Part shown: positions 20,910-52,829 of the stretch, in pieces | How the letters are laid out: each line of letters starts with the position of its first letter | Numbering within the stretch: position 1 is the stretch's first letter | From: Ruditapes philippinarum | Taxonomy: Eukaryota | DNA length: 64,000 bases | NCBI RefSeq assembly: GCF_026571515.1 | Contig: NW_026865813.1 | Span: 124,001 to 188,000 of the forward strand | Direction: 5' to 3' | Translations under genes and position numbers: made by a program | The notes under the pieces: model-generated | Database searches by the model: none | Told to the model about the DNA's origin: nothing | What the model saw: only the letters and a program-made list of their open reading frames with translations

Positions 20910-22077
20910 ATGTGGATAAAATTTGTAGCGTTTCTCTCTTGTTGTATAATAATTTCTGCTTACCCTAACGGACCACCAAAAAGCGTGTGTAAAGACGGGA
21001 TGCCAGTTCATGTAAAAGATGGACGACATATATCCTCCTCAAAATATATCTAGCCCTTTCATCATAGACGTCAATACGACTGTTATTCGACCGGGAGAAA
21101 CCATTCGGGTCAAAGTTCGCAGCAACAAGGGCGAAATGTTTCGCGGTCTTTTTCTCCAGGTTCATCCGATTCCAAATTCCGCAAATGACGAAGTTAAATA
21201 TGAAGCCGCTGGTCTTTTCGATAGAAAGTTAAAAAATGTGAAGATCATGACGTGCAGAATACTTTTAGACACGTTGACTCATAAAGATCCATTTATGAAA
21301 ATAGAAGCTTCTTTTGATTGGAGAGCTCCCTTATATCTTACACGGAATCTTGTTGTCAGGGCGACAATTTTGAAGAATTTCGACACATATTGGCATAATG
21401 TTATGTCGCCGAAAATAACTGTGATAAAAGACGAAATATCCGAAGTTAAATCTTTGGAGAAACCTTGGCTAAAAGAAATTATTAAAACTATTAAATCTGA
21501 ATACGACGTCAGTGCTAGACGTGATATTGTAAGAGCACGATTTGAACGCGGTTTCAGACAAGCCATAGATCGTAACGGTATTGTTATGGTTAATTTTGTA
21601 ACCAATTTACTACCGTTTGAAGACAGTCATGTCCCTAGAGCTCTAAATTCTAATCAATCTGTATATTTGAAAGGTGAACCCATACAAGCAGTTTCGTTAA
21701 GTGATACTTCAAATGTTACACTGTCAACGAATGATACTAATGACATATCTCAATCAGCAGAAAATGAAAATACTACTGACATAAATTCTATTGAAAAAGT
21801 CCCTGTCGAGGAGGCTGGAGAGAATATAACCGCCGCTGAAGTTGCAACAAATGTTGAGAGTAGCTTAGACTGGGATACCGACAACGGAGAGGAGTTTAAT
21901 GATGAAGATATAGATTTTGATCACAATGTTGCGGGTTTATTTAACGAGACATTTGACATGTCTCACGAGAAGAATACGCCCATGATGGAACAATATTATG
22001 AAGTTCTTGTGAAAAGTTTGTTAAAAGGGGACGAAATGGTGGCGGATACACTAAGTGAACTCTTAGAAAATAACTAA
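20910..22077 (+). CDS. Intronless secreted Reeler-domain protein with acidic/Thr-Asn-rich tail; one frameshift near 21012-21034 in this sequence
   Basis: ATG 20910 gives a signal peptide plus Reeler start, MWIKFVAFLSCCIIISA-YPNGPPKSVCKDGMPVH, then stops at 21051. The +1 frame (ORF 21019-22077) continues PPQNISSPF...FRGLFLQV...AGLF...C....TLTH...FDWRAP...VRATILKNFDTYW, which is typical Reeler. Confidence 0.85.
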
Positions 22078-23815: not shown

Positions 23816-25250
23816 AACAAGAGCTGTCGGTAGGACAGCATGCTCGACTATTCTAAGTGCTTGATAGTAAAAGAGCCTAATGTTCAATTTTTTAAGTTCA
23901 CAAAAGGGCTAATTTTTTTTATAAATTCATGTTTTAGGCCTTTGTCTAATTATACAGTATTGGCTTGACTATTCGGAAGGTAATGTCACAAGGGTGTTTT
24001 ATTGAGTATAATAATACTAATTACCTATGAATACATAAATTTGACAGAAATGGTACAAAGGCTTGTTATTAAGATGTTTTATGCAGTAAATCACTGCTTT
24101 ATTATTATGAATCCATAAAATTGTCCCAAAAAAGGCACAAACCCTTCAGTAGTTATTGAGAAAACAGCTTACAAGCAAAACTTTACCATGAATTTCTAAG
24201 TTGAAAAAGGGGAGAAAAATCAGCCTAAATGCAAGATAGAATTATGGATCTTTGTCAGTGACCTACAATTATGACCCTAAATGCATATGTGAAGTTTTAA
24301 ATAAATATCTTTAAAAGTTATTGAGATATGTAAAACTTGCATGTAAACATTAACCAAGAGACTAAGTAGAAAAGGGGATATGAATCAGCCTTAATGCAAG
24401 ATAGAGTTATGGAACTTGGTCAGTGACATACAATTATGACCCTCCAATTATGACCCTAATTGCATGTGTAAAGTTTCAAGTAAATATCTTTGAAGACCTT
24501 TAACCAAAATTTCTAAGTTTCAAAGGGGCAAATAATTCTGCAAATATTGCTGGCAGAGTTATGCAATTTTGCAAACTGATGTACATTGTTACTATGAAAA
24601 AGTGTTTTAAATTTCAATTGAATATCTCAAGCAATAATTGAGATATTTGACTTTACAAAAAAACTTTAACCAAAATTTCTAAGTTCCAAAGGGGCATAAT
24701 TCTGTCAATATTGTAGGCAGAGTTATCCAACTTGTCAATCTGATGAACCTTGTTACTATAAATAAGTATTGTAAGTTTCAATTGAATATCTCAAGCAATA
24801 ATTGAGATATTTGACTTTACAAAAAACTTTAACCAAAATTTCTAAGTTAAAAAGGGCCATAATTCTGTCAATATTGTAGGCAGAGTTATCCAACTTGTCA
24901 ATCTGATGTACCTTGTTACTATAAATAAGTATTGTAAGTTTCAATTGAATATCTCAAGCAATAATTGAGATATTTGACTTTACAAAAAAACTTTAACCAA
25001 AATTTCTAAGTTAAAAAGGGGCATAATTCTGTCAATATTGTAGGCAGAGTTATCCAACTTGTCAATCTGATGTATATTGTTACTATAAATAAGTATTGTA
25101 AGTTTCAATTGAATATCTCAAGTAATAATTGAGATATTTGACTTTACAAAAAACTTTAACCAACGCAGACGCCGACGCGGACGCTGACGCCGACGCCGAC
25201 GCCGGGGCGACTACAATAGCTCTCATATTCTTCGAATAGTCGAGCTAAAA
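23816..25250 (+). mobile_element. Composite HINE-type element containing several monomer types (last four ~164 bp)
   Basis: The 5' end is the reverse complement of 14405-14459. 23985-24160 is the reverse complement of ~13240-13412. It ends in (gacgcc)n and the palindrome agctctcatattcttcgaatagtcgagct. Confidence 0.85.
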
Positions 25251-25451: not shown

Positions 25452-25888
25452 GATACAACATATACTTGAAATAAATGTAAGGAAATAACTGTCATGAAAG
25501 GAATGACTGACATATAAATACGAATTTCATTACGCACAGCAAATACCATGACATGTATTAAATATACAAATATATGTTGAATAAATTCCTTTTAATGCTT
25601 CAATTGTAAACTAAATAAAAATATAAAAACATACTGTAACTTGTTATCTTTCTCAAATGTACAAAAACGACTATCAAAGCAGCCTTATTTTTGTTTCTTA
25701 GTAAGTTTTCTCAGAGTTGAAAAATTATGAAGTAATCTCCTGGGTGAATTCTGTAGGTGCATGACCTAGAGATAAATTCTATACACTCGTGTGACCTGGA
25801 TGATTCTGCAACATCACTGTGGCATGGATAAATTTTGTACCCTCATGTGGCCTGGATAGATTCTGTATACTCGAGTGATCCTTAATTT

Positions 25889-28800
25889 TCATTTCCAGGA
25901 GAGAAGAACAAAGTTTCTTGGTGAAAGTTCTGGGTCAAATACTGGCACTAAAGCACTTACATGTCCTGAAAAAGATTTCAAATGCATTATTTTTGACAGT
26001 AAATATAACAGGAATTTGAAATGAACTTAATTTCAACAAATGAAGAAATGTAAATCAAAACAAAATGTACAGAATTTTATATACAAATGTACAAAAGAAC
26101 CTAGAAAACTCATTTAAGTAAATTAAATCCCTGGGAGGTCTATTTAGTCAAAAAAGGGGCCTATACCAATCAACTGAATAAATAAAGGCAGAGGGTGGGG
26201 CTAGGCACTTTAATAAAAGAGATAAAAAAAATTCAATCAGCCATTTTTTATACAAGTATGTATATCAGTCATATGCATTTATAAAATTTTGGGATTATTC
26301 TTATGGGGAAAACTAACAAAATCTAACCAGATGTTTAAGACCAACACATTTAAACACAATTTATTACTGACAGCAAATATAAGCCAATCTCAAACAACTG
26401 AAAATAATTTTAGAACTATCACATAAAAACTTAAATTTGTGCATGGCCGAGTGGTCAACACGTCAGATTAGTAATCTAATGATCGCAGCCTCATAGGTCC
26501 AAACCTCGTCAGGGGAAAGTTTGTTTCCTTGAGCAAAAACTTTACACTTATTGCTCAGTATGGTTGGTTCCAGGAACAGATTCAAAAGTGTGTCTATAAG
26601 CTTATAGCTTCCTACACAATCAAATCAAATAAATCCTGTATGAAACAAATTTATCTAATATTTCTATAATCTGTACAATAAGTGTAACTATTAGAAGAAT
26701 GTTCTACAAATATTTCTTACTTCTACCTTTTTCAAATAAGAACATCATCCTGTCAAGAAGGACTAGTGTTTCTACAACAGGGGCTAAAGCAAGACGTATT
26801 GTATAAAATGCCACCACATCTTTCCATCTCTCTGTCATTCTTTCTGCTTGATGGAATAACTCCTCTGTTAACTGGTCTTGTGGAATATTCAGTTTTTGTA
26901 GACCAAGTTCAACATATCTGTTTGAGCAAAAAAAATACAAGAATAAACATTGGACCAAATTTATTTCAATGTAACAAACCGATATATCTTAGAATATCTA
27001 CTAGAACATCGTTCTTCTATAACAGTTATACTTTATTCTTGCATAAAAACTGCTCATGCAGGTATACATCAACAGAAAAGAAAACATGAATAAACAGATA
27101 GATTCTTGTGTCCATGTGCTGTTGTTGCATTGTTTTGTTAAATGAGACTAAGGGCCACATATCAAAAAGCTTAATGCAATAATGACCCCAGTAGTTGTTG
27201 TATTTTTGTTTTTGATAAGCATGACTAAAACAGCTTAATGAAATAACAGCCCCAGTAGTTTTTGGTTTCAAGTCATAACTAAACTATCAAGGTCCTATGG
27301 CTAACTTTAATTTTTGAGGATGAGAAAAGCCCTCCAGTAACCTTTCCATCCTTTTATTCACAATGGGCACCTACATGTATGTAGGACAAAAACCCTGAGA
27401 TAGCTGCAGCTTAAACATTCTGACAAAATAGAATTTCAACATTCCTGATAGATCTAGACTTTTAACTCAAAGCAGTTATGGGCAAGTACAATAATTCAAA
27501 ATTTGTAACCTTATAAAATCAGTTATGAAGGTCCCTAAATTGATAAATGTATATTAGTTTATCAGAATCATCCATACTTTTCAAACTGTAGATCTTTCAT
27601 CTTCCTTGAGGGTATTTGCACTGCAGTTCTTTTAAAATCTGGACATAATTTATTGGCAATCCATTCAAGAGCAGCTCGGTAGCTGTGAATCTTCAACAAA
27701 GGTGGACTTTCTGAAATTTAAGAAATCTTGGTGAATAAAACAAATACATCTTACCAGAATAGAAGTTATTTGAGAAATATTTTGGTTGTTGCTAAAGTAT
27801 GTGAATACATATACATGTACTAACACTGAAAAGAAAAAAAAACAACTAGAAATACATGTATGCTCACATGACATTTATTCCCCACTCTACATTTGGTGTC
27901 ACATTGCATGTGAACATACTTATGCATATTTTAAGTGTTATATTTAATTAAAACATAATATACATATATGATGATATTATCATTAGTAAGTTTCAAAAAG
28001 GGTCTGACCGAAACAAGGCGGTGATATGCACATCTCCTCATGGTATTGAAGGAATCCATAAAGTTTAATTGAATTACAGCCAGTAGTAGCAGAGAAGTAG
28101 CCCAGAAACAATTATTGCTCTATATGCATACTGTATAACTAATCAAGGGCCATAACTCTAAGTTATATTTTATATTTTCATAATCTGAAGACATGCTACT
28201 TACCTACAGGTACCTTTAAAACATTATCTTAGTCCTCAAAAACCTACCTTTTAATCTCTGTGAATATGTATCAGCAAAGTGACAAGCCAATTCCCTGCTG
28301 GCATAAGATTGCTGGTGATGAGGTAATGATATACAGAAATTACTCATTGGATAACCAACCATACCAGTCTCACAACTGTTAATGAAATAAATATAAAAGT
28401 TATTATAACTTATTATGACTAAGCAAGGACTTATCAAGGACAAATCATGCTAAACTAGGTATATTTAAGATATTTGCTGACACAGATGAAAACTGTATAT
28501 AAATCAAATAAAATGTTCCAGAACATAATATGATGCTGCTATTTCAAGAAAAATTTTAACTGATAAGCAATGATTTTCTGCATGCACCTTTAGATGAAAA
28601 GGAAATGTAACAACATATTTCTTTAATACAGGCATTTTGGAATTACATGTATTTTCTTTTCAAAAATTCAATCAAAAATTGTGTAAACGGCAGGCAGCAG
28701 ATGTTTAGCTTTATTCACTTTAAATATTACTAAATACAGAACAAGCTCTGCGGGACAACACCCTTCGCGAGACAAAGATTTTGGTTGCTGCATAGAGGTG

Positions 28801-31800
28801 TTGTTCTGGTGCGGTCAAACTTATTGTGAAGCCTTACTTTTGGAAAAAATGACTGTTGTACAGAGGTGATTTCTCTACAGAGGTCCACTCTGTCGAGATT
28901 GTACTGTAATTACTACTTTATAGAATAATACCTTTCATCTGATATCTTCATATAACAACAGCCAACTGATGCCAAACCAACTGCTGCTTGGCAATTAACA
29001 AAGAATCGTAGAAATGTGGGTGTCAGATCACCACATGCATGTAACCCCGTCAGCATAAACTTCCAGTTGTCAACATCAAGATGACCTGTGACCTCTGACT
29101 TACAAGCAACAGAATAATCTTGACCGGTACTTAGCTGTGTATTATGCCGGCTTTTGAAATCATTGTCATCAAATGGATTCACACAACTGTCACATCCTTC
29201 AGTAGTCGTTTCCACAGAATTACACGATAAAACATGGTCATTCTTTATATCACATTTTATTGATTGAGTTTTTGATTTTTCATTTTCATTAAAGTTTGAC
29301 TTAGATGTTGTATCACTTATAGTAACAATGTTTGACTGAGTAACAGATTCTGAACAGTTTTCTAACTTCAAACAACCATCTTGTGCAATTTGTGATTCAA
29401 CTTTAGCATATTTGATATCTTTAATTCCTTCAAGTAACTGACTGTTATCCTGTGTTCTTTTATTACATTCATTTAAACGATTGATCATTTCATGATGAAC
29501 TGGTTCATTGTTGGATTCTAAATCATCACAGCTGGCATCATCTGGTTCATTCTTATGGTCAATCCTTAATGCAAGATCTTTATTGGTGACATCATAAGCA
29601 CATACCCTGTTTATTTCTGAGTCTTTATCTCTGACATTCATAGAGTTTGACACAAAAGGTTGTCTAATAGTTTCAGTGTCATAATTTTCCTGACATTGTG
29701 ACGTTATTATGGCTATAAATTCCTCGGCAGTCATGTTAGGGTAAATCATGCTCGTCACGTGGCATGGAAGAGGAACCTGTTCACTACTTTTCCCTTTAGC
29801 AGCCTGAAAAAGATATTTTACAACAAATCCCCTATTTTACTCTATAAATGCTAGGCATAATAAGGATTAACCTACACTACCAGTTTAGAGCCAGGATACG
29901 TGTTCACTAAGTGGGGTTGAGGAGGGGTAGGTTAATCAGGCTATAAATTATGAGCTATCCATTGTTAAAGATCCTGTAACACATTTTTTTCATGGTTTTA
30001 TTTCATGATATGATGCTCAAATTAAGATATTTCAATATTGTAAGTTCCAATAAGCATTATTTACAAAGATATTACCCAATTTAACATTTCATGTAAATAA
30101 AGGGAGGTAATTAGAAATTTATTTTCTATAAATTCTAAGTCAAATTTTCCAATAAGAAATGAATGCATGTAATTTATTGATTAAATATAATGTGCACAAA
30201 TATTTGCAGTACACATTTTACATATTCTTCGATGTTTGAAAATTGTTTTATTTGCATAATTATAAACATATATAATTTTTTGCAAGTGTGGTATACACAC
30301 TTATGCTCGCCCATATGGTCTCTTTTCGGTGGCGAGGGTAAACAAACCCAAACACACACACGTATACACACAGTAACAATATCAATCACAAAACATACAG
30401 GATCTTTAATATAAAGGATTTTAATATATACAGCAGAAGACAACACTGCATGATTCATTAACAAAAGAAATAAAAACACTTGAATATAGATTATTCAAAA
30501 ATTTATTATAATTCACACTACCAAAAAAAAAAACAACAACAAACAATCAAAAGTGATTTCTTGAATAAATTATGAAATATGACATAACAATATCAGAATA
30601 AATATTTCACCGGTTTGTAGAAATAGATATGCAAAAAGTGTAACACAATTATTACTTACCAATATTTTCTTTTTTATCTCTCTATCAATTTCCCTGAAAT
30701 ATTAAACTGCTGAAGTATACTTGCACTTCAAGCACAAATTTTTTTTAATTGACTCTTTAACTCTTAATATAAGCATGTTTACGGTGAAAATGCAATATGA
30801 CATTTAACTATATCGTCTTACAGCAATTCAACTACATTATTATTATCTACAGACAAGCTTGAACAACTGAGAGGTCTTACCAGAGTTTATACTGTTCATG
30901 TTGGCTGCTAAAAATTAGTATTTTGTCTTGTGTATTTAGTCTCGCGATCTATTACCGACTGAGATATGCGGGCTGGCTATTAAATTGGCAACATATAGTA
31001 AATAACTTTTTGCAACAGAAATTATGCACTGTAGCTTACCTGTCATATTTGGTGGCTTTAGGTGCATGTGTCCCTGCAGCCTCTACAGATGTTACGTTCA
31101 AGTTGTAGCCAAATGACAGCAACCTAGCCAGATGTCCTAGACCTGAACCCACATCAACAACATTCTTACAATCAATATGCTGGCTTAACATATACACAAC
31201 CTGGCATAAAAATAATATGCTGACTTAACATATACACAACCTGGCATAAAAACAATATGCTACCTTAACATATACACAACCTGGCATAAAAACAATATGC
31301 TGGCTTAACATATACACAACCTGGCATAAAAACAATATGCTGGCTTAACATATACACAACCTGGCATAAAAACAATATGCTGGCTTAACATATACACAAC
31401 CTGGCATAAAAACAATATGCTTGCTTAATACAGTTGACTCTCGGTAACTCGAAATCCAAGGGACTAGGTATTTTACTTCGAGAGAAACGGAATTCGAGTA
31501 ACGTGGGACTATCGCCATTACGTTGACTTCGTACATGTATATACATGTACCTGATTGAATGTGCAAAGAAGTAGGTTTCTTATTGTTGTTAGCGGCAATG
31601 CTGCAATATTTAACCATTGAAATGACGGTAAATCACTTTCAACTACAAATTATAAATGAACAAAAATATATCATTCAAAATTTAATACATGTATATTAAT
31701 AGTGAAACATAAAACACACAATTATATTTGATTTAATTGATCATCGGACGAAAACGAAATTAGCAACTATCGTGAACCGGAAGTACAAAATTAATGTTTG

Positions 31801-34800
31801 CAATATGACGGAACATTAATTATACAAATATCATTTACGTTGATAATACACATCAATACCTAGGCTGTTATTTGACTAGGCTGTTATTTGACTAACACCC
31901 GTCAGACTGGCACGAGTAAACTTTTTTAAAGAAATGTAATTAAATTTTAATTTAGTTATCTAATTGTTAAAAACCAATTAAGTCGTGAAACGGATTAAAG
32001 ACACTTACTTTTACGACGTGTTAATAATACATGATGACCGGCAATTAAAAATTACTATGAAACGTGTAAATCACGAGTGACAACATCTCACCTTGATGTC
32101 GCCGACCTTTGATCAGTCGGCTGTTTTCACCACTTCGACTAATTGAGATGAAAAATATGTGGACTTTAATTGACGGGACCAAATTTTCTTTTCGACTAAA
32201 CAGGAGTCTCGGTAAGTCAAAATTTGACCTAAGCGGAGTTAAAATACAAAGATAAAGAAGGAAATTTGACGGGACTTTAGAAATTATTCGACTAAGGCGG
32301 AATTTTGAGTAAAGCGATTTTGACTTATTGAGAGTCAACTGTATATACACAACCTGGTATAAAAAAACAATATGCTGGCTTAACATATACACAACCTGGT
32401 ATAAAAGCAATATGCTGGCTTAACATATACACAACCTGGCATAAAAATAATATGCTACCTTAACATATACAACAACCTGACATAAAAATAATATGCTACC
32501 TTAAGATATACACAACCTGGCATAAAAACAATATGCTTGCTTAACATATACTCAACCTGACATAAAAATAATATGCTACCTTAACATATACACAACCTGG
32601 CATAAAATCAATATGCTGGCTTAACATATACACAACCTGGCATAAAAACAATATGCTACCTTAACATATACACAACCTGGCATAAAATCAATATGCTGGC
32701 TTAACATATACACAACCTGGCATAAAAAATATTATGCTACCTTAACATATACACAATCTGGCATAAAAACAGTATGCAGACTTAAGATATACACAACCTG
32801 GCATAAAAACAATATGCTGGCTGAACATATACACAACCTGACATGCAAACAATATGCTGACTTAACATATACCGTAATAATTCTATTTAGCGCCCATCCT
32901 CTAATAGACGCCCACCCCCCATATTTTGGACAAAAAACGGCCATTTTTCAGCCCAAAGTTGAAAAATTAACTGTCCCTTTTAAACGCCCATTCCCCGATT
33001 TGAGTACAATTGAGCTTACCTTTACAATTCAAGTTTCCTTATTTCCATTTTCACGTAGGAACGAACTTCCCTTTTCTTGTCTTTTTTTCCGTAAAGTTTA
33101 TATGTACACAGTATTTCAATGCCACCACCTTTTACAAAAGTTCCTTTTGATGATGAACGCGGTTCTCCAAGTATTTTGGCACTGATTTCTACAATAAGTC
33201 CATCTTTGAATAACTTTGTAAGAGGCTGACATAATCCCTCCGGTACTGTATATGTCCAACAAGAAATCCATTTATTTTTTACGATAATTGCGCTATCACT
33301 ATGTTCATTTTCTGGTTCCAAATTACACTGAAGTATAGTTCCGACTGGGCATGTATATTTGTAAACGTGATATCCCTTAATAACAGATTTTAATAGACAC
33401 AAGCATAGGGTTTGCCATAATTCAATGTGTTTTGTGTATAAGATATATATACATGTATAAAAAAATAACCATTCCGAGATGCCAAAAACTCACGCGCCTA
33501 TTTCATTACGTCAGCAAGGTCAACGTGCGGGTTCAATGTATTGGGGCCCAACATGGAGATTAGTTCTGATTAAAAATTAATTTTGAACAATAGACGATAG
33601 TCTTTTTATATCAAAATCCCACATCAATCCTTTAAGAACATATATGCTTGTGTCAGTAAAATCGGTCAGAACTATTCTTAACTTTTTATATCTTACAATT
33701 ATATTGGTGGGTATAAAAAAATGCATAATGATCGGACTCGAAATATTCCATTGACTTTTGAATTGTATAGAACATCCCCAGATTACAGAGTTAATTGGTA
33801 CCTTTACATAATATTTCGTTGGGAAAAATCATAATATTTTTGCAGGCTCATTTTTTATTCCCCTTGCTCGGATACCGGACTCTACATGCATCGGTATTAT
33901 AAGTGCGGAAAAAGAACAGACTTTAGCCGGTACGTTACGATACCGAAATCCGACTTTAGCGTTGTCTGCAATTATAAATCAACATCCGCTCTATCTTCGG
34001 ATTCGATTTCTTCTTATAGTTATGAGGGGCGAGTGGATTTATAAAGCCTTGCTTAGAAAATTAGTTTGTCTTATGAAGATGCGTCTCCAATTAACGCCCA
34101 TCCCCAACTTTCGAAAAGTCTATGATTATAATAAAAGCCCGGGCGCTAAATAGAATTATTACGGTACATGTGTACACAACCTTGCATAAAAACAATATAT
34201 ATACCGATTGAGCATTCATACAGCCTGGGCTTAAAACATATAAGATGGCTCTATGTCAGTTGGTACTCTGGTTATAAATTAAAACAATGCCATTTATCAA
34301 GGTCATCTTGACTAACTTACTAAGTCAAAGAGTTTCTACACAATAAGAGCAATCATCTATTGAAATTTGCTGACTCTCTGTTTAATTAATGTCATATAAT
34401 AATCATAATCATAATACTGTTTGGAAAACAGTTTTCACATAAAAAAATTCTGTAACTTTGACCTATCATACCCAAAAACCTGCTGGGTCTAGCTACCTAC
34501 TAAAAAACTTGGTAATCTTCCTATGAAGTTTGAAGACACAGTGTTCTCTCCAGTTATCCATTGAAATAAAATGCTCTAATGATTAACTGACTGAGAACAA
34601 ACATTTGCAGAACAATCCCGCCTCTTCTAAATCATTATGCACAATTGTCTTTCTATAAATAAATTACATTTATCTTCACTTTTACTCCTGACATACTTTT
34701 ACTACAAACTAACTTTATTCCTTAAAAACAAACCTTTGCCAAGTTTTTAATTTCATGCCGTTTCTTTGGTTTCACGTGTTTCTTGAAAAAAGCATGTAGC

Positions 34801-37800
34801 TCTCCATTGTCATCTGCAAATGCCATCAATGAAACAATAATAATCGTGTGAAAGAAAATAATCTTATCAAAGATAGTACATCATGGTTTAGCAAACACAA
34901 GCGCGGCGTGGGGTGTTAGTGCTTGTCTGTTCAGGGCAACAACAGACCTGGGGATGATAACATTGATCAGTAATTGATTTAATTACAATTAATGCCGCAA
35001 CAATTATAACAAGAGGGCCATGATGGCCCTGAGGTCACTCACCTGTATATAAGCCCCCGGAGCGGGGCCAGTTTAAACCCCAGGGCTTTTATTTGAACAA
35101 ACTTGGAAAACACTCATTAGAAGATGTTTCACAATGTTAAGTTTTTACTACACACATGTAATGAAAAACAATGATCTCACCCGCACCCCGTCTTCCCCCC
35201 CCCCCCCCCCCCCGGGCAGGGCCAATTTTCACCCAAGGGCATTTTATTTGAACAAACTTGGTAGACATCCATAAGAAGATATTTCATGCTAAACATCAAA
35301 GCTTAAGCTCATTGGGTTTTTTAAAAGAAGATTTTTAAGTTTTTACTACACACAATATAGTTAAAAACAATGAACCCCTGGGGCGGGGCAGTTTTGACCC
35401 AGGGCTTTTATTTGAACAAACTTTGTAGACGTTTACTAGAAGATGTTTAATTTGCTTAATATCTAAACCTCTAGCTATTTAGGTTTTTTCAAAGAAGATT
35501 TTTTAAGTTTTTACTATATGCTATAGGGAAAATTTCAAGACCCCCCGGGCGGGGCCAATTTTTGACCCCAGGGCTATTATTTTGAAACAAACTTGTAGAC
35601 ACTCACTAGAAGATGTTTCATGCGAAATATCTAGACTCTAGCTATTTGGGTTTTTTTTCAAAAAGATTATTTAAGTTTTTTTGCTAACACATACAAAAGG
35701 AAAATCACAATGGACCCCCGGGGCCCGGGGCGAAATTTTGGACCCCATGGGATTTTTTTGAACAAACTTGTAGACACCCATTAGAAGATGTTTCCATGCT
35801 GAATAACTTTAGCTCTAGCTCTTTTAAGTTCTTTTCAAAGAAATTTTGTAAGTTTTTAGCTATATGCATATAGGGAAAATCAATTGACCTCCCTGGGGCG
35901 GGGCTCAATGTTTGACCAGGGCTTTTATTTGAACAACTTGGTACACACTCATTAGAGATGTTTCATTGCTGAATATTTATCTCTATAGCTCTTTGGGTTT
36001 TTAAAAGAATGAAATTTTTACCGTTTTTACTAATGCACTATAGGGAAAATCAATGATCCCTGGGGCGGGCCAATTTTGACCCCAGGGATTTTAATTTGAA
36101 ACAAACTTTGGTAGAGACTGCACTAGAAGATGTTCCATGTCCAAATTTCTAAGCTCTAGCTCTTAGGGTTTTTTAAAAGAAGATATTTTAAAGTTTTTCT
36201 TTCGGTTGCCATGGCAACCAGAGTTCTGCATGGAATAATTACTTTTAACAGTCCTTTTTAAGGTGACCACCAAAGGAACATTCCTGTGAAGTTTGGATGA
36301 AATTGGCTTAGTGGTTTATGAGGAGATGTCATTTAAAGTAAAAGTTTACGGACGGACGGCCGGACGCCGGACGGACGGACGCCGGTCGAAAAGCGATCAC
36401 AAAAGCTCACCCTGTCACTTTGTGACACGTGAGCTAAAAATAAAGTTCCAGAGTGTTTAGTATTATCACTGTTATGCATTTCTCAAAAAGGTGAATAGCT
36501 GTGCTGTGTGTTTCGTGTTGATATCTTTAAATTGTTTAAGAAATGCGCTACATTAAAGATTTAGCATGATGATGATGATGACGCCAATACAGGGATCATA
36601 ATAACTAAACTTTTCTTTAAAAGACAGATCAGAAATGACTACAGAACTGTTTGTCGGTTAGGAATTTATATTTATAAGAATGATGACTCTTGACTTTCAG
36701 GAAACACAAACTATGGCTCCCTGGGTAATGGTTACATTTTTGTGCTGTAGTAGATTTAATTTCCTTTCATTTGTTCAAAAATTATAGGGAGGACATCAAT
36801 TGCTAACAGACAGATGGATGGCATACCAGGTGCACAATATTGAAACATCAAATTTTTTAGTTGTATAAAAAAATAACCAAACAAATAAATAAACCAGATC
36901 AAATCTTTAGTATACAAAAGACTGATTTACCAGTCATGTAGGGAAACAGTAATCTGGTGAGTGAAATGGGTGTACACATCTTAAAGACTGCAAAATGTTT
37001 ACACAACTAGACATGGTAACTTACCTAATGGATTAAACTTTACATCTGCATCAATATCATCATTGTCATCATCAGATCTTTCAAATCTCCCTTAAATAAA
37101 ATCATAAAAGATAAAGCTTTGATACATTTTAAAATTAAAGTCAAAATGTAACTATATAATATTTTAAAGTTTCCTGTAAATAACTCGAAACCATCACTAA
37201 GCTCCTCTTTCATCAATCACTAACATTAATAATCTCTTTGATACTATTTCTCAATTACATTTCTGATGAAATTTTACACCTGGACTGCCAAATTTTCTCA
37301 CACATAAAATAAGTACCAGTACGAGTATACAAAACTACTATAATTAAAGGATCCAAATGAAGTGTTTTTTTTTGTTTTTGTTTTTTTCAGTTCACGTATT
37401 CATGAATTAAAATGCTTTGAAAAATTTATTTTAATTATAAAGGTCAGGTCCATTTATCATTATAACATTATTGAGAAGCACACAAGACTAAGTTAAACTT
37501 GCCATTCCTCGGGTGGGCTTTTGCCTACTTACATTGTTTACATGTCTTAATAAAACCTCACATACACCCATAAATGGGATCTACAGGTATAAAATTAGAG
37601 CTTGTAAAAAAAAAAAGGTCAGAAAATCAGGACATGATTAATGCATTTACCAGTAGTGGAAAATCCTACTTTCAGTTTTAAAAAGACAAATAGTTGAAAG
37701 TGATCTTACATTATTTTGTCACAGTATGGTTTTAATCGAAAGTTAACAAAAAGTCATTATTTAGAAGTTGATATCATAGCATTTACAAATTGATCTTCAA

Positions 37801-40798
37801 CTATTATTTCATTTGAGCCGCGTCACGAGAAAACCAACATAGTGCGTTTGCGACCAACATAGATCCAGACCAGCCTGCACATCCACGCAGTCTGATCAGG
37901 ATCCATGCTGTTTGCTTACCAACCCTATTACAAGTAGAGAAACTGATAGCGAACAGCATAGATCCTGATCAGACTGCCCGAATGCGCAGGCTGGTCTGGA
38001 TCCATGATGGTCGCAAACATACTATGTTGGTTTTGTTGTGATGCGGCTCATTTATTTTTTACCATGAGCAACAAATACACAACATTATACTGTGACAAAT
38101 ATAATTTACAATAGATAATAACAAAACATGATTTTTATTACAACTACCTGTACTTACCTGTATCATTTTCATTAAACAGTTTACATAACTTGTTAGTGAT
38201 GTCCTCACATTGTCTATCCAATGAGTATGAATCACAACATGTCTTGAAACTTAGCAACGACAAAGGAACCACTTTCCTGAAACAATACTCAGTAGAATCA
38301 GTTTCTAATAACTGCCACAATTCTATTAGTATCAGACAAAGTTTTAATTAACACAAATAGAAAAAACAAATCTGAATGGATTTAACATGATGCTGCTTTA
38401 TTTCATCACTACAGATATCTCTCTTCGGAAATTAAGTTTAAATTAAACAGCAGGTTCAATCTTCAAAACCTGAAGCAAAATATACTGATAAAGAAAATCA
38501 AAGACAGCAGCAGATTTACATCAGATGGAATCTTAGTCACATGTATGAACAATAGTAAAAGTACACATCCCACTTGAACTCAATAAGGAAAAACAATTTT
38601 CAACAAACTTAACAGAGGATTACCTGACTAACAGTGCTGTTATAATTTTCTGGTCCTTCTGGATCATCGATTTAGGCACGTTTAAGTGTAAAAAATCGAG
38701 TACCGCTCAAGCCGGTGCCAGGGGGCCTGAGGGATATGTTGCACTTTTTCATTATCCCCTATATAAAGACTCAATCAAACTGAGTCTGCAACTTCCCAGG
38801 GGTCACACTTTTTCCAGATTAATTTTTACAGTATAACAGCTATGAGTTAACCAAGATACTCTTAACATAACAACCACCATCAACAACAACATTACATTCA
38901 AAAGTAGTGGTTGGAAAGAAAATAAACATTGGTAAATGAAAAGGGCTTACTGTAATTTCACTGGCCTTTTGTCCAGCAAAAAACTTAACTCTTCTGTTGT
39001 TAGTTCAGACAATGTTGTACACCATGATTTTGGCAATTTATCCCAGTGATTTTTGAAATAAAAATCCTGAAAAATCCAAAAGAAAACATAAGTAGTTTTC
39101 ATATAAAAAAAAACAATGATGAATTATTCAAAACATTACAGATTTACTATACAGTATAAGTCCAGTTGATTTGGGCAATCACCCTTCTTATTTCTATAAT
39201 AAATGTCAGTATATTTTACATCATTCTTATTCCCAACTAAATGTTATCATATATATTCAGATGATCAAATGATGATGTTAAATGCATATTAAAGATTTCT
39301 ATTTAGACTGATCTTTAAATTGGTGTTACTATCATTCTATAAATGAACAATATCTGGATAACATTCAGTAAATCATATTCAATGAAATTTTTGTATAACT
39401 GTACTAAGGAGTAAAAATCTATATTATACCAGATATGTTTTACTGTTGAGTCTGAACACTGCTTTTGACCACTTTAAATAATATATCAAAGAGGCATACC
39501 CTATTTTTCAATCTGGACAAAGCTGCTCATCTTGATTAAGAAAAAAGTTCAAAATAAAAATTACAGAGTGATAACTACCAGTCTCTCAGAGAATATTAAA
39601 AGATTTGGCTTGATTTTTTTTTTCAGTTTGATGTTTGTGTATATAGTATAGCATAACGTACTTCCATGTTAACCCATACATTTGCAGAGCAACAGATAAT
39701 GTGCATATTTGCATATTCACGCAATTAATTTTACAAAATATGCAATTGATTATTTTAAAATGTGTATCAAGACCCATTTAAAAATAAATAAAATACCCAA
39801 TTGTCTTAAATATCAAGGCATATTGTCATTTTCATCACTAAAGAAAAGTACATATGGTCTAGTGCACTGGAAGTGCACACTGTCTGCACTTCTTGTTCAG
39901 CTCTAGAAGTACAGAAGGGTGGGAAGTTTAGTGTGAACTCAACTGTAACCTGTTGTCGCTCATTGTTCTTGGACAAAGGTCAAATGCATGCTCTCAGAAT
40001 ATTACCAAATGTAAATCAGGTCTTACTTATCGACAGTCCCCAGTCTCCAAAGACTACCATTTAAAGTTGAATCAATTAAGCACTAAAACTGCCAGTTTGT
40101 ATAATTATCTACTAATTGACGGTCTTTACTGACCCGCAAAGAGCGTGAATGTGTATATGAATGTCCCATCATGGGCATGTGAATCATTTGTATCAATAGA
40201 CGCCCTGAAAGAAATATGGCATGCCATCATACAAGCGGGGACGAAAGAAGAAAAAAAAGATTTGAAACAAACAGAGCTCTAGTTTAATTACTAAATTAAA
40301 ACAGTTGTGAAAAGTTCTAGTAAATTGGTAAGTGAAGTAAGTACTATCTATAATTTTTTTAAAAACATTTTCAGCTTTACTGATATTGAACCATGAAATT
40401 CCTATCTTCATAAATGAATACCCAATTGTGAGATCTAAAATCATAGGGTAATGAAGGTCTGAATGAAATGATGGATACCCATTTCAGTTTCAAAACTTAT
40501 CTGTTGCTCTGCATTTGTGTTGAATAACTTTATCTATCCGAGTAAAACATCCTAATGTGAAATGTTTCGTTAAGGAAACGTCTGTCATCTGTTAAGGATA
40601 AAATGCTAAATTTATATATCGCGAATACTAGTTACAAAAAGATATATGAATCGGTCTGAACAAAGTTATGCAATAAAATACATAAATAATTACTGAAACG
40701 TAAGCATCTAATATCCATGTGTACTTGTGTAAGAAAGTTGTGAGCTGCTGAATATACAATTTCACTTTTTCAAGGTTTTCTGGCGATAATTTGATCAT
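25889..40798 (-). CDS. METTL25B: Methyltransferase-like 25B (RRNAD1), ~693 aa, 12 exons
   Basis: Exons 40798-40694, 39066-38951, 38276-38158, 37090-37025, 34813-34734, 31200-31040, 30693-30660, 29803-28932, 28375-28248, 27710-27578, 26917-26727, 25965-25889 (2082 nt, continuous frame). Motifs WILDAYV, HWDKLPKSW, FKKHVKPKKRHEI, VVDVGSGLGHL (SAM motif I), LTGLHACGDL, SVGCCYMK, RELACH, LAPVVETLVLLDR and PVFDPELSPRNFVL. Confidence 0.93.
26441..26646 (+). mobile_element. tRNA-derived SINE (family A-related)
   Basis: A box TGGCCGAGTGG, tccttgagcaa core, and a tail shared with 7958-8150. Confidence 0.7.
28736..28906. mobile_element. Degenerate Tc1/mariner-type MITE
   Basis: TA-CAG(A/T)ACAA...TTGTACTG-TA termini and internal cagaggt repeats. 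Confidence 0.4.
31431..32341. mobile_element. Tc1/mariner/pogo-type non-autonomous element, 911 bp
   Basis: TA on both sides; ~26-bp imperfect TIR CAGTTGACTCTC..TAA.TC.AAATC; internal subterminal repeats. Confidence 0.88.
32872..34164. mobile_element. TA-flanked TIR element (pogo/Tigger-like ends), 1293 bp, carrying a HIRAN-like ORF
   Basis: Perfect 24-bp TIR CCGTAATAATTCTATTTAGCGCCC with TA on each side; subterminal acgcccat repeats. Confidence 0.9.
33022..33402 (-). CDS. HIRAN-like domain protein inside a transposon (probably decaying; two compensating indels)
   Basis: SVIKGYHVY...LQCNLEPENEHSDSAIIVK..[VGHIP in the alternative frame]...GGGIEILC fits the HIRAN pattern (G...Y, L.REP.N.hD..A+.V, VGH+P). 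Confidence 0.65.
   Translation of the reverse strand: MCLLKSVIKGYHVYKYTCPVGTILQCNLEPENEHSDSAIIVKNKWISCWTYTVPEGLCQPLTKLFKDGLIVEISAKILGEPRSSSKGTFVKGGGIEILCTYKLYGKKDKKREVRSYVKMEIRKLEL
35007..36440 (+). mobile_element. HINE-type element with ~7 indel-rich ~160-bp repeats
   Basis: AACAAGAGGGCCATGATGGCCCT 5' hairpin; subTIR ctcacc / gtgag; (ggac)n microsatellite; terminal palindrome agctcac..tgtcac..gtgaca.gtgagct. Confidence 0.8.
37811..38053. mobile_element. Palindromic MITE (~240 bp)
   Basis: ~105-bp inverted arms (tgagccgcgtcacgagaaaaccaac...). Second copy at 49333-49573; degraded half-copy at ~43480-43585. Confidence 0.85.
38646..38791 (+). repeat. Dispersed ~145-bp element with two conserved hairpins (copy 1)
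   Basis: Homologous to 62371-62518 (-). Both share GAGTACCGCTCAAGCCGGTGC and AGACTCAATCAAAC(T/A)GAGTCTGCAA. Confidence 0.75.
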
Positions 40799-44939: not shown

Positions 44940-47900
44940 ATGGCGGACTTTGAGTCTCAGTCATGGAAAGATCGCTGTGACAGATACTTTACATCTATTT
45001 CTGATACAGGAAAAGATCGTGATCAAGAAAAAACGGCGAAAAATGACTCAGAAAATTCGCGAGAAAAACGTGCAAGTCTAGATGATTTCTTCGATGATGG
45101 AGAGAAAGGTTGGAAAGATCTTTCAGAAATAAAGAAGGCTTTCTCTGAACATTGGTTTTTACGTCATATCAGAAATGCTCTTTCAGTGCTGGATATACAC
45201 GGCTCAAATATAGCCAGCAAAGCGAAAAACACCGTTGGATTTACAATTTGGGCGATTCTTACTTTAGTGTCTGTTATCACGTTTGGAATTTTATTATATT
45301 TTATGTTGCAGGAATATTTAAATAGGCCCTCTAGTTTTCGTGTTACTAGTTTATCAACTTCAGAACGAGTAGTTTCATCTGACATCTCACTGACAGTGTG
45401 TAATTTGAACGTAATTAAAAAATCTAGACTGCCTGACACAGGATTAAACGAGTTGCACAAATTCGTGTCTGGTGAAACTAAAGCTGCACCAAGAACAGAA
45501 AAAGTCACCGTCAAAGAAATGATAGAGAGTAATGAAAAACTGACTGAGTTTGTTACGGAACATAACCCTGGCAAAGTATCAGAGTTAGTTAAAAGTATTG
45601 AAAATGATGTTATTGTGCAGGAACTTATACATTCGTCGGAAGAATCGTTATTGTTCCGTCTTAGTAAATATGCAAGACCGCAGATATTAAGAGAAGTAAC
45701 TCATATCACTAAGGATGATGTAGAAAGAGCTGGACACGTGACTAATGAGACATTGGTCCAATGCTGGAGAGATAACTCAGAATGTCAATTAAGGTAAGAT
45801 ATTTTATTACTTATTTTATTCAACATTTCAGGGAAGAAACGTTTGCTAATGTTATGAGAACTCGCGATGAGCGGCCAAGTGGTTAACCACAAACTATAGG
45901 CACGTGTAAAGAATAGTACTAAATACAAAGTACCTTGAAATAGTGGAATGGAATTACATGTACAAGTCTGGCGATCGAATTATTTTATGGAATACATGAA
46001 ATAAATTTTGTTTATCACATACTCAAAATAAGAACAGTTAACAGTAAAAAAGATTTTTTTCCTTCAGTAGTTAATACTGTAACGCTACAACTAGCATGTG
46101 TTGACGCTATGTACATTACATTTGGACGACCGTGACTTTCCATTTTTTACGGAGTCGTAAAACTGCACGGGCATATCTTCAATATTATAGACCATGTAAT
46201 GATAATTAGAAAAGCTTAAAGCGAAGCATTTTTTCTGTAGCAGGGACATTCATACGGACAGTGATTCTGAAGAAGGCAATTGTGTTGTTGTTGGTGGTCT
46301 TAGAAATTCTACACAAGGTAAGACTCTTAGACCATTATAGAGAAAACTTTATTCATTTTGATAACGACTCATGAACCAACTTTTTCAGACCCGCCACTAA
46401 CCCCCTCCCGGCAAACACTTCATATAGGTCCGATGTCATCAGTATCGGACTGATATCGTCATCTGATGTCAGTATGTCTATTTTGGATAGATATCGGTCC
46501 GATATCGGAAGACCGACTGCAATATTCCGACTTATAGCCGATATAGGTCCGATAGGTATGATTGCTAGGCTGCCACCCCATCCACTCTACCTACAATTAA
46601 AAAGAGTTTAACTAAGAACTAATTACCTTTTCCTTTGATATATTGTTACATCCGTCTTAATGCACGTTCCGCTTCTTTACAGCTAGAAACTATCCGAAAT
46701 ATCCATATATTTGAACGACAAAATTTGTCCTTACGTTCGCATACAAATACAAATGTAGCAATAGGATATAAATTTATAGTATAACACGTACAATAAAGTA
46801 ACTGAAGTACAAAGAATTTGTATAATCCACATGTAATCCGCACCATCTGTCTACAGAAACTGTACACATCTCAAATATCAGTTAGATATTTATGATGAGC
46901 AAGTATTTGCATAAATAAACCAGCTATAAATGATTTGTGTATCAGTTCAAATACACGAATAGCAAAAAAGAATATCAAAAGCAGTGACATTTGGTGGGTG
47001 CAGAACGATAAAAAATATGCTGTTTTTCTTTTCATTTTATCATTATCCAACCAGTCAAGTCTTTTTCTTACCTTCTATAAAAGCAATCAGACGGATCATA
47101 ATGATTCAAATTGAATATAAGTATTAACTTGCAATTCCTATGTACTTATTTGAAAAATACTGATCTCCCTTTTGGATTTTTTTTCTTGTTTTCAGTAGAC
47201 ATTGTCTTGAATGCCCAGACAGACGAGTACATACACCAAATAACTCCTTCAGTTGGATTTAAGGTGTATCTAAGTGACAGTGATGGCACACACTTGTTTT
47301 CAAGTTCAGTGATAGAGATATCACCGGGATTTCGTTCAACAATATCCCTGAATAAGGTACGTTGTCACTTCCAGCATGCTTAGATAGCTAGACTTCTTTT
47401 ACTTTGTACATGTGTTAAACAAATAATCAGTTTTTTTTTATTTTGCTCACTAAGAACTAGTTCTTGAGAATGGTTTTCGCTCGTGGGCCACAAATGGCGA
47501 CTCAGATTAAATGTAAATTTCATTAAAAAGATACATACAGTCCAAGAATGATACCCATTTGGTCCAAGTAAAACGGCAACTAAAAGTATGTTTCGGCAGA
47601 GTGCCATAATTATATTGATCACACTGTCCGTTCGTAACATACATGTTACATTTACAACTATGACAATAGGAAAAAAACTGTCGCTGAGTGAACGTTTTGT
47701 TGTTTCCAGGTGACAACAGTTACGCGTTTGGAGAGGTCTTGTAGCTCGTCCAGTGGTAGCAAAGCGGTAAGTACGTATTACTAATCTAACTTGTTATATA
47801 TTTATGATATTACAATGCATATAAATATTTTAGTGGAATATGAAAAGCCTGATAAAAAAGTACTCTGCAACTTAAGAAAATTACGAACATACTCAATGCC

Positions 47901-50900
47901 AGTTATTGGATATACATTTCCTAAACAAGTTCTTTTTTAATACAAATGAAAAAATTGTGAAATATTTTATTTACCATCTATTTCAGGAATGTGAATTGAA
48001 CTGTTTGGAGAGTCATGTTGTTAACATATGTGAATGTAGCACAAATAGACAAACAAGCAATACGAAGCTGTGTATGATGAACTTTGTGTCCGACTGTACG
48101 TACGTTTACAACATGTATATTAATCTTGCTCATATAACAAATTCTCTGCATGATTGTATTTGATGAAAGTTTATGAAATCTTGCACTAAGATAAATTTAC
48201 CATTTTCTCTTGCCAATAAAATAAAAATAGTTTTTCTTGTTTCAGATTTTAAAGATTTATAGGGTGTTTTTTTCTATTATTTTTATTATTTCCGACTTGA
48301 AATTGAATTTATTATCAAACATGTTTTCAGATATATGCGTACAGTCTATCAAACAATTGCAAACACAAGGACACTTGCCGTGCCAGTGTAGAGAACAATG
48401 CAGGTAACACATGATTAAATATAATTATAACATTTAATTCTTAAATACATGTATACATGATATTTTAGTCATGTACTTGTCTGCCATAGTAAAGGAAAGT
48501 AAATATCACATGATAGCTATATATTATTCACATTATTCTATTTAACTGAAATGTTTTTTCTATCCACCATTAAAGATCTTGCCAAAAATCAAGGATGCTT
48601 TAGGAAGAATAACAATTATAGCTCTTTAAAATATTGCACTTTAACATGAAAACGTGATAATATTCGCAGCGTGGGATAAAAGAAGGGAAAAAGTGTGTCA
48701 ATACTCTTGTATGAAACATGTTCGCTTTGAATTTTCAGAGAAAAGAAATTTGACTTGAAAATGTCTACAGTTGGATGGCCACATAAACAATATATGGTAA
48801 CTATGAAAACCTACTGTTATAGCATTACGGTATATATATGCGTCTTACAATATCGACCATGCCATGGAAAAAATCTGAGACAGTTGTTTTAAACTGAATT
48901 CAATCATAACCTTCTATAACACATTTTGAAACATATAAGAATCAAACACAAAACATTAATTTCCATTAGGGAGTCCTTTGCTAAATTGGTCTTCAAATCA
49001 TATTTAATGTTTTATAATTATTATGCCAAGCCTTTTTAATGTTACTCTGGTTGCCCCTCTTTACACAAATTGATTTCCAATGGGAAGATTTATTGCAATT
49101 TTGATATACATTGTATACCATATAAGTAAAAGTTTTTGGTAAGTTCATAAATGATAAGATTAGTTAATAATTTATACAAATATAATCCAAACATGAACTC
49201 ATTTTACTTCTATTGTTATTTAAATGATAATCATAAGCAAATGATTTACAGGAATTATTTGGAAGTCGATTGTTACCTGGTCACCAAAATCTTAACGAGA
49301 GCTATCTAAGGTAATTTCTATCCTTCAAGTTAAATGAGCCGCGTCACGACAAAACCAACGTAATGCGTTTGCGACCAGCATGGATCCAGACCATCATGCG
49401 CATCCGCGCAGTCTGATCAGGATCCATGCTGTTCGCTTATTTACCCTATTGCAAGTAGAGAAACTGATAGCGAACAGCATGGATCCTTATCAGACTGCGC
49501 GGATGCGCAGGCAGGTCTGGATCCTTGCTGGTCGCAAACCCATTATGTTGGTTATGTCGTGACGCGGCTGAAATTAAGAATTCACGTCTGCATACGGAAT
49601 TAACTTTTCGTTTATTTTATCAAGGAAAAACCCTGGCTTTGTGATGAACTATAAATTAAGTTACATGTCGGGCCTCGACACTAACTTTTTTAGCAGGTGG
49701 TACGCCGGACCACTAGATTTGAAAGTTAGGTGGTCCTTCCAGAAGTCAGGTGGTCAGTTATCATTATTATATCATTTTATTGCAAATGTAGAAAAAATGT
49801 TTAAACTTTATGACAAAGATGTATTATTAACCTTTAAAGAAAACAGATATTTTTAGATATATATTTTTCATCTAATCAGAAAAGGGAGAGCAAGTCAGTA
49901 GGTATTTTATCGTAGAGTTATTTGTTTATTTGTTTTTATCTCAGTCAAAAATACACAACAGAGATCTTATTTATGTTAACTTATATATTAAAGTGATTTC
50001 TCCCTCAACTCAAGTTACAAAGTTAGGGAATAGTGAAGCCATTTGTGTCTGTGAAGTGTTATTTTCTTACTGTTATTCAAATATTCATTGCTGATACGTG
50101 GTACATCTTATAATCATGATAATAACATAGCATTTTTTAAAGATTAACATTTTTAATGGAACTAATAAATTATCTTATTCTTGTCTTTGAAAACAAGGAA
50201 ATATCTAAATTATTAAAATAATGACAACATTATTATTTACTATAACTTATCTTATTTTTCTCACAGATTTATAATACAGAATTTTACCTCCCTGTTGCTT
50301 GTTGGTTGATATTCATTTTTGACATTGGGTATTTTTAACCTTTTAAAATAATTTTAACTCTAGAAGAAACAGATCTCTTATCGTTAAACAGTTAAAATAA
50401 AGATAAATAGCATAGAATTACTAGATGTATTTTTCCAGTTCCTTTCGTTTGCTGCCATTATTCAAGTATCTGAAATTTAAGTTTATTCAATATCATATAA
50501 TTACCATCATCGGATACTCACGGTTGATTAACATGTAACATAACATAAATGTTAATGGTTCCGCTGTGGGTATCAGACGACGCATAATTACTAGCACCAT
50601 TTGAATGAAATTTGTACCTAAATTAATATCACAAATTCTTAACTCTTTTAACTTGCATAAACAAAATTTTAGCGACTTAAAATGACAGTTATTGATGACT
50701 TAAGAACTTCTTTAATTAATCAGAGATTAATGAACCATATACATGTACATCGGACATAGATTAATGATTTTAAACAAAATCTTATAACATGTTTTTGACC
50801 AAATCGCCATTCTCCCAAATGAGCCTTGCATCAACCAGAAAATTCAAGTGGTCCCACGGACCAGTGGGTTTTAAAATTAGGTGGTCCTTGCCAAAATCAA

Positions 50901-52829
50901 GTGGTCTCGGACCAACGGACCACCGCTAATGTCGAGGCCTGATCATGTATAATACTTCAATTCTTTTATTAAATTATCGCAGCATATTTTGACTTATAAA
51001 TCCATCATTTTACACTTGTAATAAATAACTTAATGGGTAAAACTTAAAAAAAGTTAAAACATCATAACATAGCATCTGAGATCTACATGAGTTCAAGTTG
51101 TTTCTCTCCATGCAGCATAATTTGCATGAAATCATTTTTTGAAATAACTTAGAATGCTTTATTGCAGACTGAAGCCAAATTAACGTAACTTTATAATTTT
51201 CAGTTCTAAAACGTGTTTTGTTTTGTTTTTTCAGAGAAAATATCGCTTTCCTGACAATCAACCTTCAACCAGCGTTAACTGAAGATATTGAGGAAATCGA
51301 GCCGTTTGAGGTAAATGAATATTCAATGAATTTTAAATATATATATGTAATAAATAAATTTCGAGAGAGAAATCTCACTTTTTCAAGTACACGTCAGAAT
51401 GGTTATGTTTCAGAAAAGAATGCACATGTTCCTTAATTAAACGCTTTGAATTTACTAAAAATACTAGAAATAATGATAATTGAAATGTAATTAATGATAC
51501 AGATAGTATTTAAAGTTAATTTACTACCGAAAAACGATTTTGTCCCAAAAATAAAATTTGTAATAATAACAATAATAATACTAATAGTTTATTTGTTTAT
51601 AGATAATGGACATGCTAGCAAGAATAGGGGGCCTCTCGGCAATTATTGCTGGGATTTCTGTTATCACGGTTATAGAGATATTATATATAGCGCTGCAAAG
51701 TCTGATCCGATTTATGCGGTATATCCGAAAAAGGTAAAACATCAAGCGTTTTTCTTTGAGTTTTAAATAAAAGTATCAGTTTTGCAAGGTTTAGAAAGAC
51801 CAAACACGAGTTTTATAACTTTCAGGCATGTTAATTAGATGCCGTACCTTTTACCTGAAGTAAGATGTGCTGAATGCAATAAAAGTAGCAAAATGAAAAT
51901 AAAGTTTTACGACTTCCATACAAAATTCTAAATCACTATAACAGTACTAACTGCCAGAAGCAGCAGGTGCAAAGGTTGGTTCTGGCAATTGATCGGTGGT
52001 TAACTATTTGGAAACTAGTAAGACAACAAAACAAGAAAGCTATAAAAGCAGTTCCAGGGTATACTGGGCCTTTAATATTCGAGACATTTACACACTTTAT
52101 AACAATACCTTAATGTGCACGTCTGAATTAAAGTGGTGTTTCAATTCATTGTTTAAATATACTTTGTAAAATTTGAGTGCAACACCTTATCCGATAAATT
52201 CAAAAGCATAATGTTATTCAAAAATATTGTAAATGCATATTTGTTTTACTTTGCGTAGGTCAGGAAGCGTTGCGTCTCAAAAAAGGTTAAGTGACTCAGA
52301 AATAACGTCAATCACTTGGGCAGTGTACCGTCAACGACGTCGATTTGAAGAAGTCAACAAAATGAAAGCTGATAATCTCGCAAACAATGTTGGCGTGAAC
52401 GCTATTGGAGGCAACGTACACGCCCGCATATCAAAGAGAAGTAGCTACGACAGAGAGCCAAATAACGAGCATGTGGTCACTAACAATCATAAACAATATC
52501 GACCAAATGAATATTCTAGAAGATATGATGGGAAGAACCCTTTTTATCAGCCGAGGACACGCGATAGTTTAGTGAAAGACCCTGATTTCCCTAAAGAAAA
52601 CAATGGTGAAAGTTACGCAGTTAATGTAATTCGTCCTCATCGTCCAACTGATTACATTTATGACAGTCGCCCCGATCCCGTTCATACTGGACATGCTTTA
52701 TACAAAAATGGAACTAAATATAAGGAAACCAATGCTGGCGACAGACATCAACCACAGAATGTCTTCCTTTACGATGGTGCCGTGGCTTATTTCAATCCTG
52801 CCAATGTTTCTGAACCAGTCTATTTATAG
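44940..52829 (+). CDS. Divergent DEG/ENaC/ASIC-family channel subunit, ~740 aa, 11 exons
   Basis: Exons 44940-45793, 46244-46317, 47196-47356, 47710-47766, 47987-48095, 48331-48403, 48739-48796, 49252-49310, 51235-51310, 51603-51733, 52259-52829 (2223 nt, continuous frame). Pre-TM1 HG (LDIHG), TM1, LTVCNLN, GNC, EY...GFKVYL, ISPGF, Cys-rich thumb (C..C....V..C.C; C.C...C), S..GWP, RENIA, and TM2 IGG......GISVITVIE. Confidence 0.88.
46406..46569. mobile_element. Small MITE with internal atatcggtccg-type repeats
   Basis: Ends CCCGGCAAACA...TGATTGCTAGG; interior made of direct and inverted (ccgatat/atatcgg) units. Confidence 0.5.
49333..49573. mobile_element. Palindromic MITE (same family as 37811-38053)
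   Basis: ~105-bp inverted arms with high similarity to the first copy. Confidence 0.85.
49669..50941. mobile_element. hAT-like non-autonomous element, ~1.27 kb
   Basis: TIR C(G/A)GGCCTCGACA(C/T)TA; subterminal ggtggtcc/ggacca motifs at both ends. No clean 8-bp TSD. Confidence 0.7.

Follow-up and report, generated by a model that had tools for sequence, protein, structure and literature searches.

Minisatellite copies of the METTL25B exon 6 acceptor in a bivalve, with the last copy used in splicing

Tandem duplications across splice boundaries have been described in amphioxus and humans, and an array of this kind occupies intron 5 of METTL25B in the 64,000-nucleotide stretch of the clam Ruditapes philippinarum analyzed here (contig NW_026865813.1; hereafter the window). 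In amphioxus such arrays are called mirages, and PMC3087553 presents them as minisatellite-like duplications of intron-exon boundaries that vary between haplotypes and leave splicing undisturbed, with Adh3, troponin C, the globins BflGb6 and BflGb9, and PGBD5 as examples (troponin C and PGBD5 from PMC3902484). The human allele CBS c.844_845ins68 duplicates the end of an intron (52 nt) together with the start of an exon (16 nt), the downstream copy being used and the upstream one excised (PMC7490669). Human variable number tandem repeats at the donor side are listed in PMC1557585 for F7 intervening sequence (IVS) 7 (37 bp), CBS IVS13, 6-16, LMNB2, and PDGF, and repeats at human exon-intron boundaries are the subject of PMC2812944. 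The METTL25B array belongs to the mirage class, a kind already known from amphioxus and humans.

METTL25B is encoded on the minus strand by 12 GT-AG coding exons, 40798 to 25889, whose translation equals XP_060572310.1 exactly (693 aa plus stop), in line with the gene name and exon number given by an earlier sequence-only reading of the window. The same protein (P0001, XP_060572310.1, "methyltransferase-like protein 25B", Ruditapes philippinarum) is 100% identical to the 53-codon exon frame 31200-31042. Below, and throughout, a slash marks the splice joint.

25889..40798, minus strand: METTL25B coding region (exact translation; Pfam matches on exons 6 and 8)
40798-40694, 39066-38951, 38276-38158, 37090-37025, 34813-34734, 31200-31040, minus strand: METTL25B exons 1-6 (spliced model)
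30693-30660, 29803-28932, 28375-28248, 27710-27578, 26917-26727, 25965-25889, minus strand: METTL25B exons 7-12 (spliced model)
34734..34813, minus strand: METTL25B exon 5, donor AAG/GTTTGT (gene model; loose end of the spliced contig from sequencing run X6)
34733-31201, minus strand: METTL25B intron 5, 3533 nt (gene model)
31040..31200, minus strand: METTL25B exon 6, 161 nt, phase 0, starting at the last acceptor copy (model, Pfam, contig)

Exon 6 begins with the residues VVYMLSQHI and also contains VVDVGSGLG, which we take to be S-adenosylmethionine-binding motif I. Pfam Methyltransf_32 (PF13679) matched exon 8 with an E value of 6.6e-12 and exon 6 with one of 3.3e-05, below cut-off, and across the exon 5/6 joint the RefSeq protein reads ...NLAK/VVYMLSQHIDCK. 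The function of METTL25B is uncertain, its rRNA adenine dimethyltransferase activity being inferred from annotation alone in PMC8662637. Exon 8 (29803-28932, minus strand) carries a long, poorly conserved insert within the Methyltransf_32 domain; in Mercenaria and Mya the insert has another length and another sequence. A diverged tandem array of 3.5 copies of 28 bp (25771-25867) begins about 20 nt past the stop codon.

The exon 6 acceptor occurs 20 times including the authentic site at 31200, leaving 19 extra copies in intron 5, where about 19 had been noted from sequence. The acceptor lies within a consensus unit of 40 bp, from which the 14 units that are exactly this long deviate by 0 to 5 bases; AG is kept in 19/19 upstream copies and AG/GT in 18/19. 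Each unit comprises 12 intron-only, 22 exon-only, and 6 shared bases, which agrees, within the ambiguity of the boundaries, with the 13 intron and 27 exon nucleotides first proposed. The microhomology ATATTG, also noted earlier at the junction, was found at +23 to +28 of exon 6 (31178-31173) and in unique flank above the top copy (34198-34193). Tandem Repeats Finder returned period 40 at 31173-31428 (6.4 copies, 96% matches, score 477) and at 32343-32872 (13.1 copies, 88% matches, score 779). The extra copies are discontiguous, split 5 + 13 + 1 by two inserted elements, A and B, with only 5 of the 19 lying no more than 200 nt from the authentic acceptor and 14 more than 1.1 kb away.

31173..31428, minus strand: exon-proximal block, authentic acceptor 31200 plus five decoys at 31240, 31280, 31320, 31360, and 31400 (Tandem Repeats Finder, gene model)
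31431..32341, strand not assigned: element A, 911 bp, in unit -6; TA on both flanks; terminal inverted repeats 12 bp perfect, imperfect to about 25
32344..32869, minus strand: middle block, 13 decoy acceptors from 32353 to 32837, more diverged (Tandem Repeats Finder, unit comparison)
32872..34164, strand not assigned: element B, 1293 bp; TA on both flanks; terminal inverted repeats 24 bp perfect; missing from the run X6 allele
34165..34198, minus strand: top (most upstream) unit, acceptor 34180 reading AAG; CATG-containing extra bases beside element B (unit comparison)

Unit variants recur on both sides of element A (GGTAGC in units -2, -9, -10, -12, -14, and -16; GCAAGC in -6 and -11), and the array is therefore older than this element. 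Six animal-like homologous exons on metagenome contigs had the acceptor at an unchanged position and an upstream copy in 0/6, so that the array looks lineage-specific. These are six of eight metagenome loci, L007 and L008 having been excluded as partial matches (residues 14-40), and since L002 to L006 are near-identical to each other and 3/6 have less than 400 nt upstream, they do not amount to six independent tests. The 11-base word TACCGA[TC]TGAG occurs in intron 6 (30953, plus strand) and right above the array top (34202, plus strand), nowhere else in the window.

As in the amphioxus mirages, the clam unit lies across a junction of intron and exon in the gene that hosts it, and its splice signal is kept; the end unit is the authentic one and all others are intronic. 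What is repeated, the 3' end of an intron and the start of the following exon, matches BflGb6, and the 40-bp unit falls inside the 10 to 72 bp range given for Adh3. The Adh3 mirage is reportedly also somatically unstable. Unlike the described amphioxus cases, the present array is from a bivalve rather than a cephalochordate, has 20 copies compared with 3 to 7 in the globin and PGBD5 examples, and is broken by two DNA-transposon-like insertions. CBS c.844_845ins68 shares the boundary duplication and use of the downstream acceptor, whereas it has a single extra copy, no array, and rescues a pathogenic variant. The human donor-side repeats share identical pseudo-sites beside an authentic one and use of the exon-adjacent copy; they differ in lying at donors and in an oriented scanning tested by mutation, in contrast to the exon definition inferred for the clam, while in human CBS and 6-16 proximal pseudo-sites leak. 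Searched by title or the start of the abstract, the papers listed included no bivalve boundary-spanning minisatellite, most subscription papers being outside that coverage. The rarity implied by the sequence-only reading was not upheld, given a named class (PMC3087553) and two further cases in the same window, described below.

Four sequencing runs (X6, X19, X23, and X24) were aligned to 30661-31260, a stretch that reaches copy -1, not copies -2 and beyond. Run X6 yielded a 790-nt contig at depth 20 that carries the exon 6/exon 7 joint (skipping 346 nt) and has a loose end at 31202 that agrees with exon 5 in 29/30 letters. In this spliced contig exon 5 is joined to the last acceptor copy at 31200, the major form. 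The contig and the RefSeq protein agree with the exon start and the use of the last copy proposed from sequence. No exon 5 loose end at 31242 (copy -1) was present among the four loose ends listed for run X6. The raw RNA runs X23 and X24 contributed 7 and 9 reads of 12.9 million each, 0 on exon 7 and 0 spliced, and were uninformative either way.

The same runs bear on whether the array could be an artefact of assembly, an explanation of negligible probability. Tandem arrays are often misassembled and no single piece covers the whole array; against this stand the differences of 0 to 5 bases among units and the behavior of two runs. Run X19 has even intron cover (DNA-like), shows 18 listed differences from the window, and contains the unit at about equal copy number: its unit contigs have depths of 925 and 635 versus 158.6 for the exon, or 5.8 and 4.0 per copy, where the window's own 31-mer counts are 6.6 and 3.4. 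One X19 unit has CATG inserted between two TA. A second X6 contig (depth 2.26, unspliced) joins the array top to the same flank: with element B absent, its top units run directly on to 34199, and they are not identical to those of the window. The array is real and polymorphic, because X19, another animal, has a similar unit copy number and an X6 contig lacks element B. Allelic differences seen between the window and run X6 comprise the top units and element B.

Splice-site matrices were trained on the window's own sites, only 26 acceptors and 27 donors. With these, the five nearest copies each scored 9.5 bits against 9.3 bits for the authentic acceptor, and local sequence consequently cannot pick the last copy. 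Position differs: the last copy is nearest a strong donor, that of exon 6 at 10.0 bits (23/27 donors in the window are lower), with an intact exon behind it, which makes exon definition the likely chooser. Because the two insertions push 14/19 copies more than 1.1 kb off, the effective competition is among 6 acceptor sites, not 20. The claim that the last of several near-identical sites is chosen thus held, while the 5 + 13 + 1 split, and with it the narrower contest, had been missed.

All 19 upstream copies, if used, would lead to a premature stop at residue 168 to 278 of 693, at least six introns remaining downstream. The frame statements made earlier were borne out: from copy -1 a TGA is reached 66 nt in, and plain read-through of units meets a TAA 93 nt in. 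The GGTAGC variant places a stop at codon seven in 5 copies. Predicted exon size is ordinary for copies -1 to -5 (201-361 nt) and 1.3-3.1 kb for the remaining copies. In-frame extension of the protein by upstream copies was rejected, as 19/19 stop early, and a 17-nt micro-exon via the AAG/GTAGCA variant was set aside on its donor score of 3.2 and its being out of frame.

Together, we consider it quite probable that the array is a neutral mirage minisatellite whose last copy is used in the mature mRNA. A 40-bp piece over the intron 5/exon 6 boundary would first have been duplicated at the 6-bp ATATTG microhomology and has since expanded to 20 copies through ordinary minisatellite turnover, the full exon staying behind the last copy so that all extra copies are intronic. 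Since such an expansion leaves the protein unchanged, no selection for the array is needed. Elements A and B landed later in the TATA patches of two units, and B is polymorphic. Exon definition would then favor the last copy, the one nearest the strong exon 6 donor and with unbroken exon behind it, and transcripts spliced to earlier copies, with the stops described, would presumably be removed by nonsense-mediated decay. Exon definition with nonsense-mediated decay as a backstop is the likely mechanism. Several points weigh against this reading. RNA support comes from one contig of one run whose RNA status is presumed, none of the listed runs carrying the sequence being registered as RNA, though the spliced joint in that contig speaks for RNA. 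Rare variants are lost from contigs, and the X6 junction view comprises the pieces listed only; the aligned stretch ends at 31260, so junctions to copies -2 and beyond fall outside it. Moreover, nearby pseudo-donors are used in the human CBS intron 13 and 6-16 gene arrays, and silence is therefore not guaranteed (PMC1557585).

One rival is that the decoys are leaky, with copies -1 to -5 used at a real rate, their products degraded, and the array allele tuning METTL25B output through unproductive splicing. We regard this as unlikely. The five near copies score like the authentic site and would give exons of just 201-361 nt, the two human donor-side arrays just named do use their proximal pseudo-sites (PMC1557585), and decay would hide mis-spliced products from contigs. 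However, no exon 5-copy -1 joint was present in the listed pieces, even though an unspliced contig of depth 2.26 survived beside the spliced one of depth 20, and amphioxus mirages are reported without splicing disturbance in PMC3087553 and PMC3902484.

A second route to the same mRNA would be a ladder of recursive splicing, in which exon 5 joins an AG/GT decoy, regenerates a donor (AAG/GTTGTG), and re-splices to the last copy. The presence of AG/GT in 18/19 upstream copies provides the necessary sites, the regenerated donor scores 4.7 bits, higher than 5/27 real donors, and the end product would look identical to the mRNA observed. Yet 0/27 donors in the window start with GTTG, and the real exon 5 donor reaches 9.3 bits against 4.7 for the regenerated one (small matrix). 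Further, the GT belongs to the first Val codon and occurs likewise in 6/6 array-free homologous exons, and the FAM221B array discussed below reads AG/CC while its last copy is still used (RefSeq protein), rendering a ladder unnecessary. A ladder with exon 5 often joined to a decoy first is therefore very unlikely; if true, it would account for tolerated acceptor arrays without transcript loss to decay.

Each of the two inserted elements interrupts the TATA patch of a unit, and from their sequence we read them as TA-targeting, nonautonomous DNA-transposon-like insertions, presumably of the Tc1/mariner-pogo type, family not assigned. Terminal inverted repeats, TA flanks, and, for B, an empty allele are shared with such elements; A and B differ in having no transposase match, 0/6 open reading frame pieces in and around them matching Pfam. 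BLAST within the window gave no second copy of either beyond the element itself.

33025..33432, minus strand: 136-codon open frame within element B, HIRAN-like features (lead only)

This frame had an Atlas feature score of 0.91 to a HIRAN cluster, a lead only, with no Pfam match and 0 PDB sequence matches. That transposons made or carried the array, in place of slippage at the boundary, is extremely improbable. In its favor, both elements do sit within units, and in three alleles (the window and runs X19 and X6) the top unit of the array is recognizable by CATG inserted between TA dinucleotides. Against this origin, the unit is gene-derived and ends in 6-bp microhomology, variants are the same on both sides of A, an allele lacking B still has the unit, and neither element has another BLAST match in the window. 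The word TACATGTA occurs 28 times in the window versus 2.1 expected; it and the CATG inserts may be transposon excision footprints. A literature search on TACATGTA as such a footprint found no supporting paper among the 15 of 24 listed.

Two further acceptor arrays in the window show the pattern seen in METTL25B.

12228-12456, plus strand: second acceptor mirage, CCDC112 exon 8 (acceptor 12441); 33-34-bp unit, about 7 diverged copies, 72% matches
1741-1634, minus strand: third acceptor mirage, FAM221B exon 2 (acceptor 1637); 23-25-bp unit ending AG/CCAG, 4 extra copies

In both genes the last copy is the one represented in the RefSeq protein, and upstream AGs within the arrays lead to an early stop in 6/6 cases for CCDC112 and 11/11 for FAM221B. 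The CCDC112 array takes up roughly two thirds of its 337-nt intron, and the real FAM221B exon 2 acceptor has the lowest score of the 26 in the window matrix. Acceptor arrays were present at 3/26 exactly modeled acceptors versus 0/27 donors, or 3/36 versus 0/36 with hand-called sites added. With the METTL25B array excluded, 2/3 arrays of at least three copies contain a splice site (p = 0.049 under uniform placement, 0.12 within gene spans), as do 2/6 of at least two copies (p = 0.12 and 0.27, respectively). A junction-word test gave no clear excess (2-3/26 acceptors versus 79-94/1200 random AG sites). Enrichment of minisatellites at splice sites is not claimed, the permutation tests being marginal (p 0.049-0.27) and the cases too few, and a real acceptor-versus-donor bias is doubtful.

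Elsewhere in the window, the following features were recorded.

1952-3040, 12706-14401, 24498-25163, 35208-36198, 53921-54719, 56694-57260: short satellite arrays (period 137-170 bp), several of them with CGGA-type microsatellites behind
44940-52829, plus strand: gene of ten exons, whose relatives are about 740 aa long
21016-22077, plus strand: 353-codon uninterrupted frame with an acidic tail

We take the satellite arrays to resemble the satellite-bearing nonautonomous elements common in bivalves, the ten-exon gene to be DEG/ENaC-like by its motifs, and the start of the 353-codon frame to be Reeler-like.

The METTL25B array extends mirages to a bivalve. Its natural alleles, which either have or lack a 1.3-kb spacer, offer a ready test of choice among identical 3' splice sites, the tests in the papers cited here having been made on donor arrays. 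With three acceptor arrays in 64 kb, counting such arrays across the whole clam genome would seem worthwhile, above all with regard to acceptor-versus-donor bias.

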